A DNA stretch of 62,567 nt, the filler included. It is 8 parts of 8 records of this genome, joined end to end, with 100 filler letters (N's around TTAATTAATTAA, not from the genome) between each part and the next. Parts side by side here need not be neighbours in the genome. Positions count along the whole stretch, not along the records: positions 12,604 to 17,881 come from SRR31147125_33780; 7 more parts are not named here. The stretch is one strand, 5' to 3'. Every line of letters begins with the position of its first letter. Position 1 is the stretch's first letter. Positions 5,637 through 18,267 of this stretch are shown here, piece by piece. The notes below the pieces were generated by a model. The model did no database searches. It saw only the letters and a program-made list of their open reading frames with translations, and was not told the origin of the DNA. The position numbers were made by a program, and so were the translations under genes.

Positions 5637-6730
5637 ATGGCACGCAAAATCTTTATCGCTGCGACAGGGATGAATAGCGGAAAAACGACAACCAGTATCT
5701 CCCTGATGCATATGGCCCGCAAAAATATGATCGGGTTGGATTTATCAAGCCAATCGGGCCTAAACCGGTTGAATTTGAAGGCCATGTCGCTGATAAAGAT
5801 GCTCTGGTTATGGCGCGTTGTTTTGGTTCGATGGATGATCTCCCCCTGATGTCTCCGTTTGTTTTGAAGCAGGGTGACACGCGACGCATCATGGATGGCG
5901 AGATCAGCAAAGAAGACGTTGCCAGCAAAATGCTCGATGCGATTGATGAGCTCGATCGCAAAAATGATTTTCTGATTATTGAGGGGGCAGGACATACCGG
6001 TGTCGGGACTGTTCTCGGTTGCAACAACGCGCGGATCGCCAGGGAAACTGGTGCTTCCGTGATGATGGTGACCGGGGGCGGCCTGGGCAATGTCGTTGAT
6101 GCTTCGAAGATGAATCTGGCTCTGTTTCAGAAAGAGCAGGCGAAGGTCAAAGCGATACTGGTAAATAAAATTATTCCGGAAAAGCGTGATCAGACGCTGA
6201 AGTATCTTGAGATGGCTTTTGCTGATGAAGATATTCATGTTCTCGGTGGGTTTAACTATCAACCGATCCTTGCAAACCCGACTCTGAGGCGTATCGCGAA
6301 TGTCCTGAAGATCAAGCTGCATGCGACAGAAGAGCAGGGACAGCGGATTGTTCATAATGTTCAGATGGGAGCGGCATCTGCGCAGCGGGTTGTCGAACTG
6401 TTGCAGGACTCCTCGCTTGTCATTGTTAATCGCAGCCGGGATGAGCTTCTGGTCACCATTTCACATCTGTACCAGTTACCGGAATACCATGATAAAATTG
6501 CCGGTCTGATCATTCCAGGGGTCGGAGAGGTGAGCTATATTACGCAGAAAATTATCGACAGTAGCGGGATTCCGTATATCCGTGCCGGTCGAACCTCGTC
6601 CTCTGTTTTTGAGACCATACGGGACGATGTCTCGAAGCTGACTGCTGAGGATACTCACAAGATTGACCTGATTACTGATCTTGCTGAAAAACGTTTGAAT
6701 TTTGATGAAATTGACGCATTGCTTGATTAA
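5637..6730 (+). CDS. BioD-like P-loop (AAA_26) + DRTGG protein, resembling the N-terminal part of phosphotransacetylase; one frameshift near 5722
   Basis: IFIAATGMNSGKTT Walker A, continuing in another frame as YDRVGFIKPIG, then LIIEGAGHTGVG and a DRTGG-like C-terminal half; shift at an A5 run. Confidence 0.85.
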
Positions 6731-6750
6731 ATAAATAGAGGAGATCAGAA

Positions 6751-6945
6751 ATGTTGATTCGTGTCCGATATAAAGATGGTCGTATCGATCTTGTTCCTTC
6801 TCAAAAGCTGGACGAGTTGATTGTCATGAGCGAGATCGAGCAGTTTGAACGCTCAACGGGGTGGGTGAAACTCGGCGAAGACCCAGTCAGAAGCACAATA
6901 CGGGGGATTTATTCTGGACCTGAACGGCGAAAGCTGAACCTGTAA
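6751..6945 (+). CDS. GSU3473-family small protein
   Basis: MLIRVRYKDG...LDELI...FERSTGWV...DPVR...YSGPERR; GAGGAG RBS. Confidence 0.85.
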   Translation: MLIRVRYKDGRIDLVPSQKLDELIVMSEIEQFERSTGWVKLGEDPVRSTIRGIYSGPERRKLNL

Positions 6946-7071
6946 TTGTGTGATTATTTTAAGCTTTTATGTGGGCCTGAGTTAATTAACCTGTTGATTT
7001 TCCAGTCTTTATCCCTTTCTTTTGTGCCTCAGTAGTGTTAGCATGAGAAAAGTCGAGTAAAGGAGGCTGCT

Positions 7072-7263
7072 ATGAAAGAAGTTGCAGTCGTCTATCAGGA
7101 CGGCATGATGGACATGGTTGAATCAGCAATTTTACAAAAACTGATCGATGCTGACGGGATCGTCAAGTTTCAGCGTTCGGACGGGTGGGTCTATCCTGGG
7201 ATTGACCCTGTCAGGAGACTACCGAATCCCGGCTATGCTGGCCCGGAAAGGCGTCTGTTCTAA
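7072..7263 (+). CDS. GSU3473-family small protein (second paralog)
   Basis: VVYQDG...LQKLI...FQRSDGWV...DPVR...YAGPERR; AGGAGG RBS. Confidence 0.85.
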   Translation: MKEVAVVYQDGMMDMVESAILQKLIDADGIVKFQRSDGWVYPGIDPVRRLPNPGYAGPERRLF

Positions 7264-7275
7264 ATAGTTTGAAGT

Positions 7276-7308
7276 AAAAAGCCCGGTTGTTCAACCGGGC
7301 TTTTTTTT
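7276..7308. terminator. Bidirectional rho-independent terminator
   Basis: A5-GCCCGGTT-GTTC-AACCGGGC-T8 between convergent genes. Confidence 0.9.
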
Positions 7309-8155
7309 AGAATTTCAGATTCGTCAGTTTCTGTTTGTACTCTTTGAGTTGAGTCATGACCTGGGACCGATTTTTCCGACCGATACGCAGGAGCACTTTC
7401 TGACCTGCTGATCGTTTTTCCAGAAGAGGATCGGCGTAAGTGTAGAGGACACCCGGCTGAGACAGCAGGATCGGTTCAGGGATGTCCGGTGTCTCTAGAA
7501 GGTGGTTGAGGACATAAACCAAACGATCATTGAAGTAGGCGTTTTTATATCCCAACTGCTCATACGCAGTCTGAAACAGGGGATAGAAATGGACATAAAT
7601 TTTAACGACAACATCGCTGTCCAGTGAGTTCAGTAGTGTGACATAGGGCCGGTAACGCTTGTTGTTTCGACTGCTGCTTTGCGGGGCTTCCTGAGTTCCG
7701 GAGACAATAAATTTCCCCCCGGTGGTTTGATTGGCAAGTGCGCCCTGGGGATTTTCTTCTGGAAGGGTGTCGACGGTTGCGACCATCCGTTGAATGAAGT
7801 TTTCAATGAACAGCAGATTTCCGAGCGAGTTTTCACTTAATAAACTCGCCAGAGCTTCCTGAATACTCTGATCGCTCTCTTCAACTTCAGGGAGCGTTTC
7901 GGGTAGTACGGGAGTTACTTCTGCACTTGGTGCCTCTTCAGAGGGTTCATGCCCCGCTGCGTCTTGTTCTGTGGAGGCGACCGGGACCGGGTAATGAACA
8001 ATCGGCTTTTTGATCGGCTCTTCCGGCGGTGGCGGCTGAGTCGATGCCTGGGGTGTTTCTTGCACCGTTTCAGAGGATTGCTTTAAGTAAATAGCTGTTA
8101 TCAGAGCGACAACAAGGATCAGTAGTGTGAATATGGCCAGGTTTGTTTTTCTCAT
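7307..8155 (-). CDS. DUF3014 domain membrane-anchored protein
   Basis: N-terminal TM, Pro-rich linker, RYRPYV...YPLFQTAYEQLGY...FNDRL...YTYADPLLE...AGQKVLLRIG. Confidence 0.85.
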   Translation of the reverse strand: MRKTNLAIFTLLILVVALITAIYLKQSSETVQETPQASTQPPPPEEPIKKPIVHYPVPVASTEQDAAGHEPSEEAPSAEVTPVLPETLPEVEESDQSIQEALASLLSENSLGNLLFIENFIQRMVATVDTLPEENPQGALANQTTGGKFIVSGTQEAPQSSSRNNKRYRPYVTLLNSLDSDVVVKIYVHFYPLFQTAYEQLGYKNAYFNDRLVYVLNHLLETPDIPEPILLSQPGVLYTYADPLLEKRSAGQKVLLRIGRKNRSQVMTQLKEYKQKLTNLKF

Positions 8156-14842: not shown

Positions 14843-16185
14843 ATGCGCATCCTCATTGTAGATGACGATGATACCCAACGGGAGATGCTCCAGGGATTTT
14901 TGGATAATCAAGGTTATGAAACCATCACCGCAGTTGATGGCGCGTCCGCGCTTGCGGTGTTTCAAAAAAACCCCATCGATCTTGCACTGCTGGACAACCG
15001 TATGCCCGGCATGACCGGAGAAGAGCTGCTTGAAAAGATAAAAGCCGTCAACCCGCTGGTGCATGTGATCATGATTACCGCCTACGGCAATATCGGCACC
15101 GTCATCAAGACCATGAAGCTCGGTGCGGTGGAGTTCTTGGAAAAACCGGTGGATCTGACGGTTTTGATGGAGCGTATCCAGGAAGTGGAGATGACCGTCT
15201 CCAGGGATGAAGATGTCGGTGAAGTCCGGGAGCAGCTGGAACAAAAAGCGTTGCCGTTAAAACTCATCGCCGAAAGTGATGCCATGAAAGAGGTGCTCTC
15301 CCGTGTCACCCGTGTGGCCCAAAATGACTGGCCCGTACTGGTCACCGGAGAGACTGGAACCGGCAAGGAGGTCATCTCCCGGTTGATCCATCTCATGGGA
15401 GAGCGGGAAAAAGCGCCGTTCATCGACATCAACTGCGCAGCCATTCCGGACAACCTGTTTGAAAGCGAGCTGTTCGGTCACATCAAAGGCTCATTTACCG
15501 GCGCAACCAGCCCCAGACGCGGCTGCTTTGAGATGGCCCAGGGCGGCACCCTTTTCATGGATGAGATCGGAGAGATGCCCCTATCCCTTCAATCGAAACT
15601 TCTCAGGGCCATTCAGGAAAAAAAAATTCGGAAAATCGGTAGTGAAAAAGATATCGATATTGATGTCCGCCTGATCTCCGCCACCAACCGGGACTTGAAT
15701 CAAATGTCGAAAGAGGGGGCTTTCGGGAAGATCTCTATTATCGTATCAATGTGCTTGAGATCCATATCCCTCCATTGCGGGAGAGGAAATTGGATATCCC
15801 TTTGTTAATGGATCACTTTTTGTCGAAATATGCCGGCAAGCGATTTTCATTTTCGCCTGATGCAAAAGACACGCTCATCAAATACCCGTTTCCCGGAAAT
15901 GTCCGGGAGTTGGAACACATTGTCCAGAGAACCGTCACCTTTGCCCGTACAACCGTGATCCAGCAAAAAGATCTCCCGGAAGAAGTGAGACGCCATGATG
16001 CGTCCGAACGGGGAGACACGTTGGAAGAGCGACTGCTCTCATTGGAACATGATATGATCACTTCCGCATTGGAGAAGGCAAACTGGGTCCAAACACGGGC
16101 AGCCGAAGCACTGGGGATCAGTGAACGGGTGTTGCGCTATAAAATGAAACGGCTTGATATCAGCAATCATCAAAGACGAAGCTGA
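14843..16185 (+). CDS. NtrC-family sigma54-dependent response regulator; frameshift near 15720
   Basis: REC (ILIVDDD, LLDNRMP), GETGTGKE, ESELFGH.KGSFTGA, FMDEIG, FREDLYYR split by the frameshift, FPGNVRELE, Fis HTH AAEALGISERVLRYK. Confidence 0.95.
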
Positions 16186-16289
16186 GAGGCTATTTGCATA
16201 AAAACGCCGCCGTTTCAGCGTCTCCGGTTTTTCATATTTTGTTCTACGGAATTTTTTAAATCCCAGGTATCGAAAAGATAAAAAATGAC

Positions 16290-16318
16290 TTGACACGCTA
16301 AAAAAGCTCATCTATGAC
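16290..16318 (+). promoter_or_regulatory. sigma70-type promoter for the leader/ABC transcript
   Basis: TTGACA-17 bp-TATGAC; predicted +1 falls at about 16325, the A of the leader ATG. Confidence 0.6.
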
Positions 16319-16324
16319 CTATTC

Positions 16325-16444
16325 ATGCATAGAAAGACGAACCATTTTTACTTGACAATTGTAGACTACCGAAAATTTTATTTTTTTATTTTCTTTTTTA
16401 GCAGCTTCTATTTTATGAAGTCTGCTCATGGAGAAGATATGTAA
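16325..16444 (+). CDS. Phe/Tyr-rich attenuator leader peptide (39 aa)
   Basis: MHRKTNHFYLTIVDYRKFYFFIFFFSSFYFMKSAHGEDM*: 9 Phe and 4 Tyr; its 3' end overlaps an antiterminator arm. Confidence 0.7.
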   Translation: MHRKTNHFYLTIVDYRKFYFFIFFFSSFYFMKSAHGEDM

Positions 16445-16552
16445 AAATATCGGACAAGAGAGTGAATAGAAACCATGGGCAGACTGAAAGCGCTTCAGTA
16501 AATCCATGGTTTTTTATTTTTCAGGGCTGTGGGTTTACCCGCAGCCTTTTTT
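16419..16552 (+). promoter_or_regulatory. Transcription attenuator with two terminators and two mutually exclusive antiterminators
   Basis: T1 16470-16512 + U tract; T2 16525-16546 + U6; AT1 16419-16431:16473-16485; AT2 16499-16511:16525-16537. Confidence 0.75.
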
Positions 16553-16583
16553 GTAAATGCAGTTTTTATCAGGAGAGAAAACA

Positions 16584-17741
16584 ATGCAAAAAAGAGTGAC
16601 ATCCATTTCAACCAAGGCGGTATTACTGACAATGATCCTCTGCGTACTCCCCATTTCATGGGCATTGGCAGGATCGACCTACAAAATCGGCGGAATCTTC
16701 TCATCCACCGGTCGGGCATCTTTTCTGGGGGATCCGGAAAAAAAGACCATGGAAATGTTGGTTGAAGAGATCAATGCAGCCGGCGGTATCGATGGACATA
16801 TGCTTGAAGCCGTCATCTATGATTCCGAAGGGGATCCGGCCAAAGCGGTTAGTGCCGTCAACAAGTTACTCCACAAGGACAACGTTCTTGCCATCATCGG
16901 CCCCAGCACCACTCCGACCACTCTGGCCATTGTCAACTTTATAGAGAGAGCTCAGGTCCCCCTTATCAGTTGTGCGGCCGGTGTTGCCATTACGTCTCCG
17001 GTAAAACCGTGGGTATTTAAAACCGCCCAGAGTGATCTTCTGGCGGTGGCGGCCGTTTACCAGCACATGCAGGCCAAAGGGATCAAGAAAATCGGTGTCC
17101 TCACCGTTGCCAACTCATTTGGAGAGAGTGGTAAGAATCAGCTTTTGAGTCAGGCGGGAAAATTCGGTCTGGAAGTGGTCCAGGCAGAAAGCTTCGGTGC
17201 CAAAGACACCGACACAACGGCCCAGCTTACCAAAATCAAATCTGCCTCTCCCGATGCCATTGTCTGCTGGGGAACCAATCCCGGACCGGCGGTTGTGGCC
17301 AAGAACGTCAAACAGCTGAAAATGGACATCCCCCTCTACCAGAGCCATGGTGTGGCATCTCCCAAGTTCATCGATCTGGCCGGTGAGGCCGCTGAAGAGA
17401 TCGTGCTTCCCACCGGTAAAATTCTTGTGACGGATCTTCTCCCGGATGAGGATGCACAAAAAAGTACGCTGAAAAGTTATGAGGCAACCTACAAAGCCAA
17501 ATATCAAGCCAATGTTTCCGGATTCGGCGGCTATGCTTACGATGCCATGCAGCTTCTGGCAAAAGCGCTGAAAGGCAGCGACGGCGATAAAAAGAAAATT
17601 AGAGATACACTTGAAGGCATTCAAGGTCATGTGGGTGTTACGGGAGAATTCAATTTCTCAGCCGGCGATCACAACGGTCTGTCTCCCAAAGCGTTTGTCA
17701 TGGTCGAAATCAATAACGGCACCTGGAAGCTGATCAAATAA
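16584..17741 (+). CDS. Branched-chain amino-acid-type (LivK/LivJ-like) ABC substrate-binding protein, possibly for aromatic ligands
   Basis: AGGAG RBS, signal peptide, KIGGIFSSTGRASFLG, INAAGGIDG, IIGPSTT, SHGVAS, YAYDAM, GVTGEFNFS..DHNGL. Confidence 0.92.
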   Translation: MQKRVTSISTKAVLLTMILCVLPISWALAGSTYKIGGIFSSTGRASFLGDPEKKTMEMLVEEINAAGGIDGHMLEAVIYDSEGDPAKAVSAVNKLLHKDNVLAIIGPSTTPTTLAIVNFIERAQVPLISCAAGVAITSPVKPWVFKTAQSDLLAVAAVYQHMQAKGIKKIGVLTVANSFGESGKNQLLSQAGKFGLEVVQAESFGAKDTDTTAQLTKIKSASPDAIVCWGTNPGPAVVAKNVKQLKMDIPLYQSHGVASPKFIDLAGEAAEEIVLPTGKILVTDLLPDEDAQKSTLKSYEATYKAKYQANVSGFGGYAYDAMQLLAKALKGSDGDKKKIRDTLEGIQGHVGVTGEFNFSAGDHNGLSPKAFVMVEINNGTWKLIK

Positions 17742-17881
17742 ACCGCCATAATTGCCGACGCATCATACAAATGCATGAAAATCAATATATGGCAGCGTGT
17801 TACAAATACATCGTAAAAAATCTGAAAGCGGATCCACAATTGATCCGTAAGGGAGTCGGCGATTACCGATTTACCACTTAT

Positions 17882-17981
17882 NNNNNNNNNNNNNNNNNNN
17901 NNNNNNNNNNNNNNNNNNNNNNNNNTTAATTAATTAANNNNNNNNNNNNNNNNNNNNNNNNNNNNNNNNNNNNNNNNNNNN
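17882..17981. other. Artificial contig linker
   Basis: N44-TTAATTAATTAA-N44. Confidence 0.99.
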
Positions 17982-18267
17982 AAAATTATTTTGGACAGCA
18001 GTGATTTCTTTTATTTTTTTAAAAATTGGCCCACAATCATATAACTAAAAATAGCATCGAGGAAAATTATAGCCACCATTTTTTCATTTAATTTTTACCA
18101 GGAATAAAAGTGATCTTTTTCAACCATTTATTTTCAAAAAGTCCTTGGTTTTTCTTGTTTAAATCTCTATAATTTCAACACATGAAACGTATTTAACACA
18201 TTACAAAATCATACAGCAGGTATCAAGTGCTATCAGGATAGTTTGCTAAGTAAAATGGAGTACACAT

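Follow-up and report, generated by a model that had tools for sequence, protein, structure and literature searches.

Leader-peptide attenuation is a textbook mechanism, known above all from biosynthetic operons in Gammaproteobacteria, Alphaproteobacteria, Actinobacteria and a small number of Firmicutes. In the his leader of Salmonella and Escherichia coli, six RNA segments form a chain that pairs either as A:B, C:D and E:F or as B:C and D:E, and only the last helix is a terminator. An attenuator at aroR-aroF of Corynebacterium glutamicum was reportedly described by Neshat et al. in 2014. Two terminators in series occur in the tandem THI elements of Desulfovibrio, which are outlined in PMC545781 as riboswitches each followed by a terminator, that is, as two independent sensors. 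The present analysis concerns a leader in a 62,567-nucleotide stretch of DNA joined from eight parts of one genome (the window; all positions count along it), which lies 5' of a gene for a periplasmic binding protein and combines a phenylalanine (Phe)-rich open reading frame (ORF) with two intrinsic terminators, T1 and T2. Judged from its sequence, this element is a real attenuator, and a shortage of phenylalanine most likely switches the transporter gene on. At the level of the family to which the element belongs, it is highly probable that these leaders are transcription attenuators that work through a leader peptide and sense the charging of tRNA-Phe and, less strongly, of tRNA-Tyr.

The leader ORF and its alternating hairpins

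The leader ORF (uORF) occupies 16325..16444 on the plus strand and comprises 39 codons, nine of them for Phe and four for tyrosine (Tyr), with an alternative in-frame TTG at 16352. Ten of the Phe/Tyr codons fall into a regulatory run, codons 18-30 (16376-16414), and the stop codon is at 16442-44. The uORF is preceded by a sigma-70-type promoter candidate (16290..16318, plus strand), in which a -35 box TTGACA (16290-95) and a -10 box TATGAC (16313-18) are separated by a 17-nucleotide (nt) spacer. A TTGACA(C) box recurs at the equivalent relative position in most related loci; a strict promoter scan did not list the promoter at 16290-16318, because its second hexamer ends in C. Promoter, uORF and aromatic run had all been read in this way by a first-pass annotation made from the letters alone, which had also placed the arms of both terminators, the inner stem of T1 and the U tracts where they are found here.

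Six RNA segments can be delineated in the leader. Segment 1 (16400..16408, plus strand, as are all that follow) lies inside the Phe/Tyr run and is the 5' arm of a 1:2 hairpin in the minimum free energy (MFE) structure. Segment 2 (16417..16431) can pair either with segment 1, through 16417-26, or with segment 3, through 16419-31, the latter pairing being the antiterminator. T1 (16470..16521) consists of segment 3 (16470-16488), a loop, segment 4 (16494-16512) and a U-rich tract to 16521, with outer arms at 16470-78 and 16504-12 and an inner stem of 16483-88 with 16494-99. T2 (16524..16552) consists of segment 5 (16525-33), a TTTA loop, segment 6 (16538-46) and six T residues (16547-52). A further helix, 4:5, is proposed across 16499..16537, between the 3' arm of T1 (16499-16511) and the 5' arm of T2 (16525-16537). 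Segment 2 is separated by 20 nt from the end of the main Phe run and by 11 nt from the stop codon that follows it, a spacing that fits a ribosome footprint of about 30 nt.

The 241-nt leader folds far better than its composition predicts (z = -6.2 against 200 dinucleotide shuffles, none of which folds as well). The 2:3 helix (16419-31 with 16473-85) has 13 base pairs, one of them G-U, and a stability of -20.2 kcal/mol, as compared to -20.8 kcal/mol for T1 and -19.2 kcal/mol for T2, both of which are followed by U tracts, and -14.8 kcal/mol for 4:5. Folding thus confirms the two long complementarities on which the first-pass annotation had built its proposal. That annotation had overlooked the 1:2 hairpin (16400-08 with 16417-26, -11.3 kcal/mol), the addition of which completes the classical attenuator set of 1:2, 2:3 and 3:4 hairpins.

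These segments are predicted to pair as 1:2 together with 3:4 (T1) and 5:6 (T2), or else as 2:3 together with 4:5. When Phe is ample, the ribosome would proceed to the stop codon at 16442-44 and cover the 3' part of segment 2, blocking 2:3 so that T1 forms; a polymerase that escapes T1 would then meet T2, since segment 4 is locked in T1. When charged tRNA-Phe is scarce, the ribosome would stall at 16376-16399 and cover segment 1, which would leave segment 2 to capture segment 3 as it emerges, so that no T1 forms. The freed segment 4 could in turn capture segment 5 before segment 6 has been made, delaying T2 too. With both terminators bypassed, the polymerase would reach the binding-protein gene 32 nt downstream.

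The energies by themselves do not favor this scheme. The 2:3 helix and T1 are isoenergetic and T2 outweighs 4:5, and in equilibrium folding with ribosome-masked positions, a check put forward in the first-pass annotation, 2:3 is the MFE structure in one of three stalled footprints. Masked equilibrium folding, therefore, does not select the antiterminated fold by itself, does not decide the switch, and is not used as support here. Since the read-through state is not the one favored at equilibrium, kinetics must govern both decisions, as in known attenuators.

The relatives of the leader provide the stronger case. A scan of genome contigs with the binding protein yielded 76 loci (numbered with the prefix L), mostly from Desulfobacterales, Syntrophobacterales and Desulfarculales. 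A covariance model built from 13 close leaders (R1) gives 30 plus-strand matches, the window and 29 loci, and nine minus-strand matches, eight of which are partial and lie on the near-palindromic T1, the ninth being a weak full-length match in L022. A second model (R2), built from 29 leaders and applied to the 76 loci at E <= 0.05, matches the window and 31 of these loci, every one of them on the coding strand and placed either before the binding-protein gene or some 2 kb farther up, in front of genes for a PaaK-like and an ACT-domain protein (paaK-ACT). The same model also reaches beyond this collection: among 151 genomes sampled evenly across the phylum to which one carrier belongs, 31 have a match at E <= 0.01, and these matches have segment 2, segment 3 and T1 in common, and mostly T2 as well.

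The pairings were assessed on a MAFFT alignment of 29 sequences from several orders that was not fitted to any structure. The 2:3 helix is paired in 88.5% of cells, as compared to 31-41% when the arms are slid against each other, has changes on both sides in 5 of its 13 pairs, and reaches a covariation score that none of 500 shuffles attained. The 1:2 helix is paired in 77.7% of cells, with three pairs changed on both sides, and the outer stem of T1 in 96.4%, with both-side changes in 4 of 10 pairs, such that 7 of the 19 pairs of these two helices are altered on both sides. Segments 2, 3 and 4 are altered jointly at one position in L057, and the 2:3 helix has double changes in L054 and in L048. 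Because the aligned sequences are related, the shuffle control overstates significance, and the slid controls together with the explicit compensatory changes make the stronger argument.

The coding capacity of the leader has been retained along with its pairings. An aromatic-rich ORF with 4-11 Phe codons is found in 27 of the 31 related leaders of the transporter/paaK group; the exceptions are L007, which reaches a contig end, L068, L012, in which the ORF is deleted, and L055, which counts as an exception through a wrong automated choice of frame and really has a 20-codon ORF with six Phe. Gaps within the coding part of the 13-sequence alignment are 3 nt long only, with one single such gap in 6 of 13 rows and no other length. 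Beyond the enrichment for Phe, the leader peptides vary freely, and the position of the stop codon shifts, from directly after the Phe run in L049, L051 and L053 to past segment 2 in most others. The C-terminal residues of the peptide that are conserved coincide with RNA segment 2, and their conservation is thus explained by pairing. The attenuation geometry and the Phe/Tyr leader peptide of the first-pass annotation hence hold up across 29 sequences in the conserved Phe-rich ORF, the restriction to 3-nt indels and the compensatory changes in antiterminator and terminators, and the covariation and the conserved aromatic codons that it suggested looking for upstream of relatives in Desulfobacterota were both found.

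The second terminator and its possible link to the first

T2 is ancient. Of 30 leaders viewed, 18 have a hairpin of this type, with a GGCYGTGG 5' arm and a U tract, after T1, and so do L052 and L043, which makes 20 of 32; the carriers include the most distant members of the family, from distant orders. Across the 18 sequences, T2 is paired in 96.3% of cells and 3 of its 9 pairs have changes on both sides. The 5' arm of T2 is nearly invariant across orders, whereas its 3' arm drifts and tolerates a mismatch, which suggests a further pairing of the 5' arm. The 4:5 helix could be this pairing, as in the same sequences it is paired in 90.1% of cells, as compared to 35-45% when slid. Furthermore, the arm types of T2 track those of T1 in the wider family: CCATGG occurs with CCATGG, CCGTGG with CCACGG, and CCCCGG with CCGGGG.

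A similar picture emerges from 62 leaders of the wider family, in which L055 and L090 have the same sequence. A second hairpin lies no more than 50 nt away in 49 of the 62, 33 of which have at least five T in the next 10 nt, and, when compared with shuffles of the same composition, the 4:5 duplex exceeds 95% of them in strength in 41 of the 49, and in 31 of the 33 with a T-rich tail; this test assigns T1 wrongly in L012, L016, L017, L068, L106, L107 and L116 and overlooks the T2 of L082. A stricter version, confined to 34 leaders with T2, gives p <= 0.017 for all of them. Three Tyr-rich leaders of 3-deoxy-D-arabino-heptulosonate 7-phosphate (DAHP) synthase genes, L092, L095 and L100, have a post-T1 hairpin that lacks a U tract and stops immediately 5' of the Shine-Dalgarno sequence, which suggests that their second stage is translational and not transcriptional.

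The most serious alternative is that there is a single decision, in which the ribosome switches T1 alone, T2 being a constitutive or leaky stop that lowers expression in either state, or the relic of a T1 duplication, and 4:5 a by-product of the CCATGG-like core. Several observations weigh in this direction and against chained control. Twelve of the 32 family members are without T2; T2 is 4.4 kcal/mol more stable than 4:5 in the window; and in the 10-pair core of 4:5, six pairs vary on one side only (through G-U pairing) and two never vary, so that the complementarity could be no more than a consequence of the near-palindromic core that T1 and T2 have in common. In several DAHP synthase leaders, moreover, T1 and T2 have almost the same arms, as a duplication would leave them. 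A strong constitutive terminator 32 nt ahead of the start codon would however shut the gene off in both states, there being no promoter between the two, and the near-invariance of the 5' arm of T2 beside a drifting 3' arm weighs against this alternative, as does the tracking of arm types across lineages. In the window, 4:5 also reaches across the T2 loop, leaving segment 6 without a free toehold. The single decision appears rather unlikely, and a cascade would be well compatible with the data and would best account for the position of a strong terminator so close to the start codon.

Nevertheless, chained control of T2 by 4:5 is put here at somewhat less than an even chance. The serial disabling of both terminators, as proposed in the first-pass annotation, stands in so far as T2 and 4:5 are conserved beyond close relatives, and is weakened by variation that is mostly one-sided and by a T2 that is stronger than the helix that should prevent it.

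Translation, target genes and the wider family

The integrity of the window copy bears on whether the switch operates there. No Shine-Dalgarno sequence was flagged before ATG 16325 or TTG 16352, whereas an SD-like motif (Shine-Dalgarno, SD) precedes the uORF start in 21 of the 31 related leaders. The closest relative, L004, has a GTG start preceded by SD-like GAGGTGA, where the window has GTA, which makes initiation at ATG 16325 uncertain. As this ATG begins 7 nt past the -10 box, the transcript may, at a guess, be leaderless, and the window uORF could be translated from such an mRNA. Elsewhere in the family, several Desulfobacter copies are without a canonical start: no such codon precedes the Phe-rich frame in L016, L017, L027 and L068, and in one Desulfobacter metagenome-assembled genome (L012:3835-3971) the leader-peptide region is deleted and T1 is kept. 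These five may be decaying copies or copies with unusual initiation. In some Desulfamplus relatives the promoter is kept and the leader is absent. The translation of the uORF that the reading of the first-pass annotation requires is accordingly suggested by the starts of most relatives and uncertain for the window itself.

A sequencing-run search returned the probable source DNA run of the window and, with a small share, one wetland metatranscriptome. A contig assembled independently from the former equals the window over 15650-17750, save one extra G, and reproduces the T-rich leader without any indel. This excludes the homopolymer artefact in the uORF frame that had been feared; as the window itself probably comes from this run, the contig is not independent biological support. 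From the wetland library, a 214-nt contig is identical to 16126-16339, from the end of an upstream regulator gene to the first uORF codons, and the organism or a near-identical strain by this evidence occurs in that wetland. The contig ends at 16339, may even derive from DNA, and shows neither a start nor an end nor transcription of the leader.

These points could be taken to mean that the window copy is decaying or silent, the uORF being untranslated, 1:2, T1 and T2 forming by default, and an orphan binding-protein gene being off from this promoter. The loss of the SD-preceded GTG of L004, the loss of the leader from Desulfamplus loci and of the ORF from L012, and the lack of permease genes between the binding-protein gene and the next run of N (below) would all agree with decay. 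In the window, however, all six RNA segments and the in-frame Phe run are intact and identical in the second contig, a leaderless mRNA starting at ATG 16325 could be translated, and the binding-protein gene is itself intact with a good Shine-Dalgarno sequence. Decay of this copy is regarded as improbable.

The presumably regulated gene occupies 16571..17741 on the plus strand, with a Shine-Dalgarno sequence AGGAG at 16571-75, ATG at 16584 and a product of 385 amino acids with a Peripla_BP_6 domain. The solved structures most closely related to this protein are 3uk0, 3tx6, 4jb0 and 3ukj, at E 2e-41 to 5.5e-41, as compared to 1.2e-13 for LivJ (1z15) and a range of 1e-13 to 1e-11 for LivJ and LivK structures. 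Structure 4JB0 belongs to a study of CouP of Rhodopseudomonas palustris (PMC3610893), which describes CouP (RPA1789) as a LivK-family protein with nanomolar binding of coumarate, ferulate, caffeate, cinnamate and 4-hydroxyphenylpyruvate. The transporter is thus more probably of the CouP-like, aromatic-acid type than of the LivJ-like, amino-acid type, and the target named in the first-pass annotation, the binding protein of an ATP-binding cassette (ABC) transporter, stands.

In Desulfobacteraceae, the leader is directly 5' of the binding-protein gene, which is followed by LivH/LivM-type permease genes and two ATPase genes. In Syntrophobacterales, Desulfarculales, Desulfatibacillum and others, it lies about 2 kb further upstream, 5' of paaK-like and two-ACT-domain genes that precede the same transporter genes. 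The former encodes a phenylacetate-coenzyme A (CoA) ligase-like protein, which scores 625-639 bits with TIGR02155, just below the equivalog cut-off of 646. Two copies of the leader occur in one genome, the first in front of the transporter genes and the second in front of paaK-ACT alone. In the transporter operon of L004, a saccharopine dehydrogenase-like gene (6301-7620) lies between both permease genes. The window differs from nearly all relatives in that permease and ATPase genes are missing between the binding-protein gene and the N stretch that begins at 17930, which does not help the case for a regulated transporter; what follows is a 52-codon ORF, in a stretch from 17771, and 338 N (17930-18267), with a gene for a 737-amino-acid Reg_prop protein right after the N. 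Either the binding-protein gene stands alone here, as an orphan, or the assembly has a break.

A CouP-like importer, paaK and ACT-pair partners under the control of a shortage of charged tRNA-Phe have as their simplest reading a salvage route, consisting of import, CoA activation and conversion to Phe. We tentatively propose, at less than even confidence, that cells starved of Phe induce the uptake and activation of aryl acids, such as phenylacetate, phenylpyruvate or similar compounds, for Phe synthesis. Reductive carboxylation of phenylacetyl-CoA by 2-oxoacid:ferredoxin oxidoreductase is known from rumen bacteria and methanogens. The imported substrate could also be Phe itself.

The genes downstream of the phylum-wide matches extend the family to other pathways. 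Among 27 downstream ORFs, 18 encode DAHP synthase (16 above the cut-off of NF006421 and two below it, at 254-256 bits), two encode PaaK-like proteins, one 2-amino-3,7-dideoxy-D-threo-hept-6-ulosonate (ADH) synthase, one an aminotransferase, one 2-isopropylmalate synthase and one a weakly YbgF-like protein, and three belong to no family. ADH synthase is an alternative, archaeal-type entry into the shikimate/aromatic pathway; its gene in L103, and that of a pyridoxal phosphate-dependent aminotransferase in L110, are preceded by aromatic-rich leaders of the same type. Whereas paaK and transporter leaders are dominated by Phe, those of DAHP synthase genes mix Phe, Tyr and tryptophan (Trp), with at least two Tyr in 18 of 18 and Trp in 15 of 18. 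In L116, a leader at 1501-1602 on the minus strand lies 5' of the 2-isopropylmalate synthase gene (leuA) and combines T1 and T2 with CCATGG arms and a leucine (Leu)-rich ORF, with six Leu in 22 codons, and in its unconstrained fold 2:3 and 4:5 coexist. The two-terminator chassis thus extends beyond aromatic amino acids.

That the sensed residue follows the regulated pathway is a signature of leader-peptide control, and it argues against the two remaining alternatives. The first is an RNA switch that binds a ligand or protein, or a small RNA (sRNA) gene with two terminators, the ORF being an accident of T-rich sequence. T-rich DNA does give Phe codons in several frames, the leader is strongly structured, and attenuator transcripts can act as sRNAs in other bacteria (PMC6614838). 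An accidental ORF would, however, hardly keep its frame with 3-nt indels only, a start codon and Shine-Dalgarno sequence in most copies, and an enriched residue that shifts from Phe (paaK/transporter) to Phe/Tyr/Trp (DAHP synthase) and Leu (leuA); no conserved aptamer of several helices appeared besides the alternative hairpins, nor did any Rfam family match, all of which renders this alternative very improbable. Least credible of all is a functional hydrophobic micro-protein whose gene T1 and T2 simply end. The small ORF is indeed conserved and of hydrophobic aromatic composition, but what is conserved is the aromatic enrichment and not the sequence, both length and stop position differ among copies, the C-terminal residues coincide with RNA segment 2 and co-vary with segment 3, and the 32 nt after T2 hold no separate promoter for the downstream gene.

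The intergenic region (16186-16583) separates the binding-protein gene from an NtrC-type sigma-54 response regulator gene at 14843-16185, with Response_reg, Sigma54_activat, AAA_lid_14 and HTH_8 domains. A sigma-54 promoter that ties this regulator to the binding-protein gene was considered and rejected, as none of the 25 window matches to a -24/-12 element (TGGCAC-N5-TTGCW, with at most two mismatches) falls inside 16186-16584. Among related loci, this neighborhood of the regulator is conserved only in L004. The regulator gene is broken into two frames in the window; the extra G of the second contig sits within it, in the G-run 15715-19, and gives a single ORF of about 448 amino acids, as in L004. 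This indicates that the frameshift is an assembly error and not the mark of a pseudogene.

Comparison with described systems

A scan of the leader with Rfam 15 found no family at its gathering score. Phe_leader (RF01859) reaches 16.6 bits against a required 55, with E = 5, and this match and those to snoR23, DnaX and rox2, which also remain below their gathering scores, were set aside as due to chance or composition. A literature search in which subscription journals were largely outside reach returned no published description of this leader, of leader-peptide control of paaK or a CouP-like transporter, or of an attenuator in which one sensor serves two terminators; the first-pass annotation likewise had known of no such serial double attenuator on a deltaproteobacterial transporter, and none was found described. 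The mechanism is classical in principle, and the family is widespread in Desulfobacterota, among sulfate reducers and their relatives, and apparently uncatalogued.

The fullest reading, in which one stall is relayed through complementary CCATGG-like arms to two serial terminators, on a chassis that has been reused for DAHP synthase, for leuA and for a hitherto unrecognised Phe-starvation regulon of CouP-like importer, PaaK and ACT-domain protein, is a doubtful one when taken as a whole. If true, the relay would square the off state while keeping the on state, and together with the regulon it would point to reductive Phe synthesis, with scavenged phenylacetate or phenylpyruvate as the starting material, as an anabolic route under regulation among sulfate reducers and syntrophs. 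Induction by Phe starvation would argue for an anabolic salvage role of the paaK-ACT-ABC clusters rather than a catabolic one, and the regulated genes would give a physiological label to these widespread, poorly understood clusters of anaerobes. The leader itself defines a large family in Desulfobacterota that is missing from Rfam 15 and from the literature searched, and presents a natural design, one sensor apparently governing two terminators by means of chained helices, that is of interest for low-leak synthetic regulators.

Like the his leader, the element is a chain of six segments; here, however, 3:4 and 5:6 are both terminator-like with U tracts. With the tandem riboswitches of Desulfovibrio it has in common two serial terminators in one leader, and it differs in having a single sensor, the ribosome on the uORF, and a T2 that is devoid of a sensor of its own. 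CouP, the LivK-family binder of aromatic carboxylates and the closest solved group to the window protein, is placed by PMC3610893 under the CouR repressor in a catabolic cluster, and not under attenuation. The aroR-aroF leader of C. glutamicum, with its Phe/Tyr leader peptide, its aromatic-pathway gene and its response to Phe limitation, parallels the DAHP synthase branch of the present family, as summarised in PMC11802643. It is actinobacterial, has a short Phe-Tyr-Phe motif and, in that summary, a single terminator, and the window copy precedes a binding-protein gene and not DAHP synthase. The element works like this leader and like the pheL-pheA and pheM-pheST leaders of E. coli, which, in the summary given by PMC11802643, have the same Phe-codon ORF, 1:2, 2:3 and 3:4 hairpins, intrinsic terminator and sensing of tRNA-Phe. 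The window leader is yet not a member of Phe_leader (RF01859) and belongs to another phylum; its family, moreover, has transporter and CoA-ligase operons among its targets in place of pheA or pheST, and a second terminator that appears to be chained to the first.

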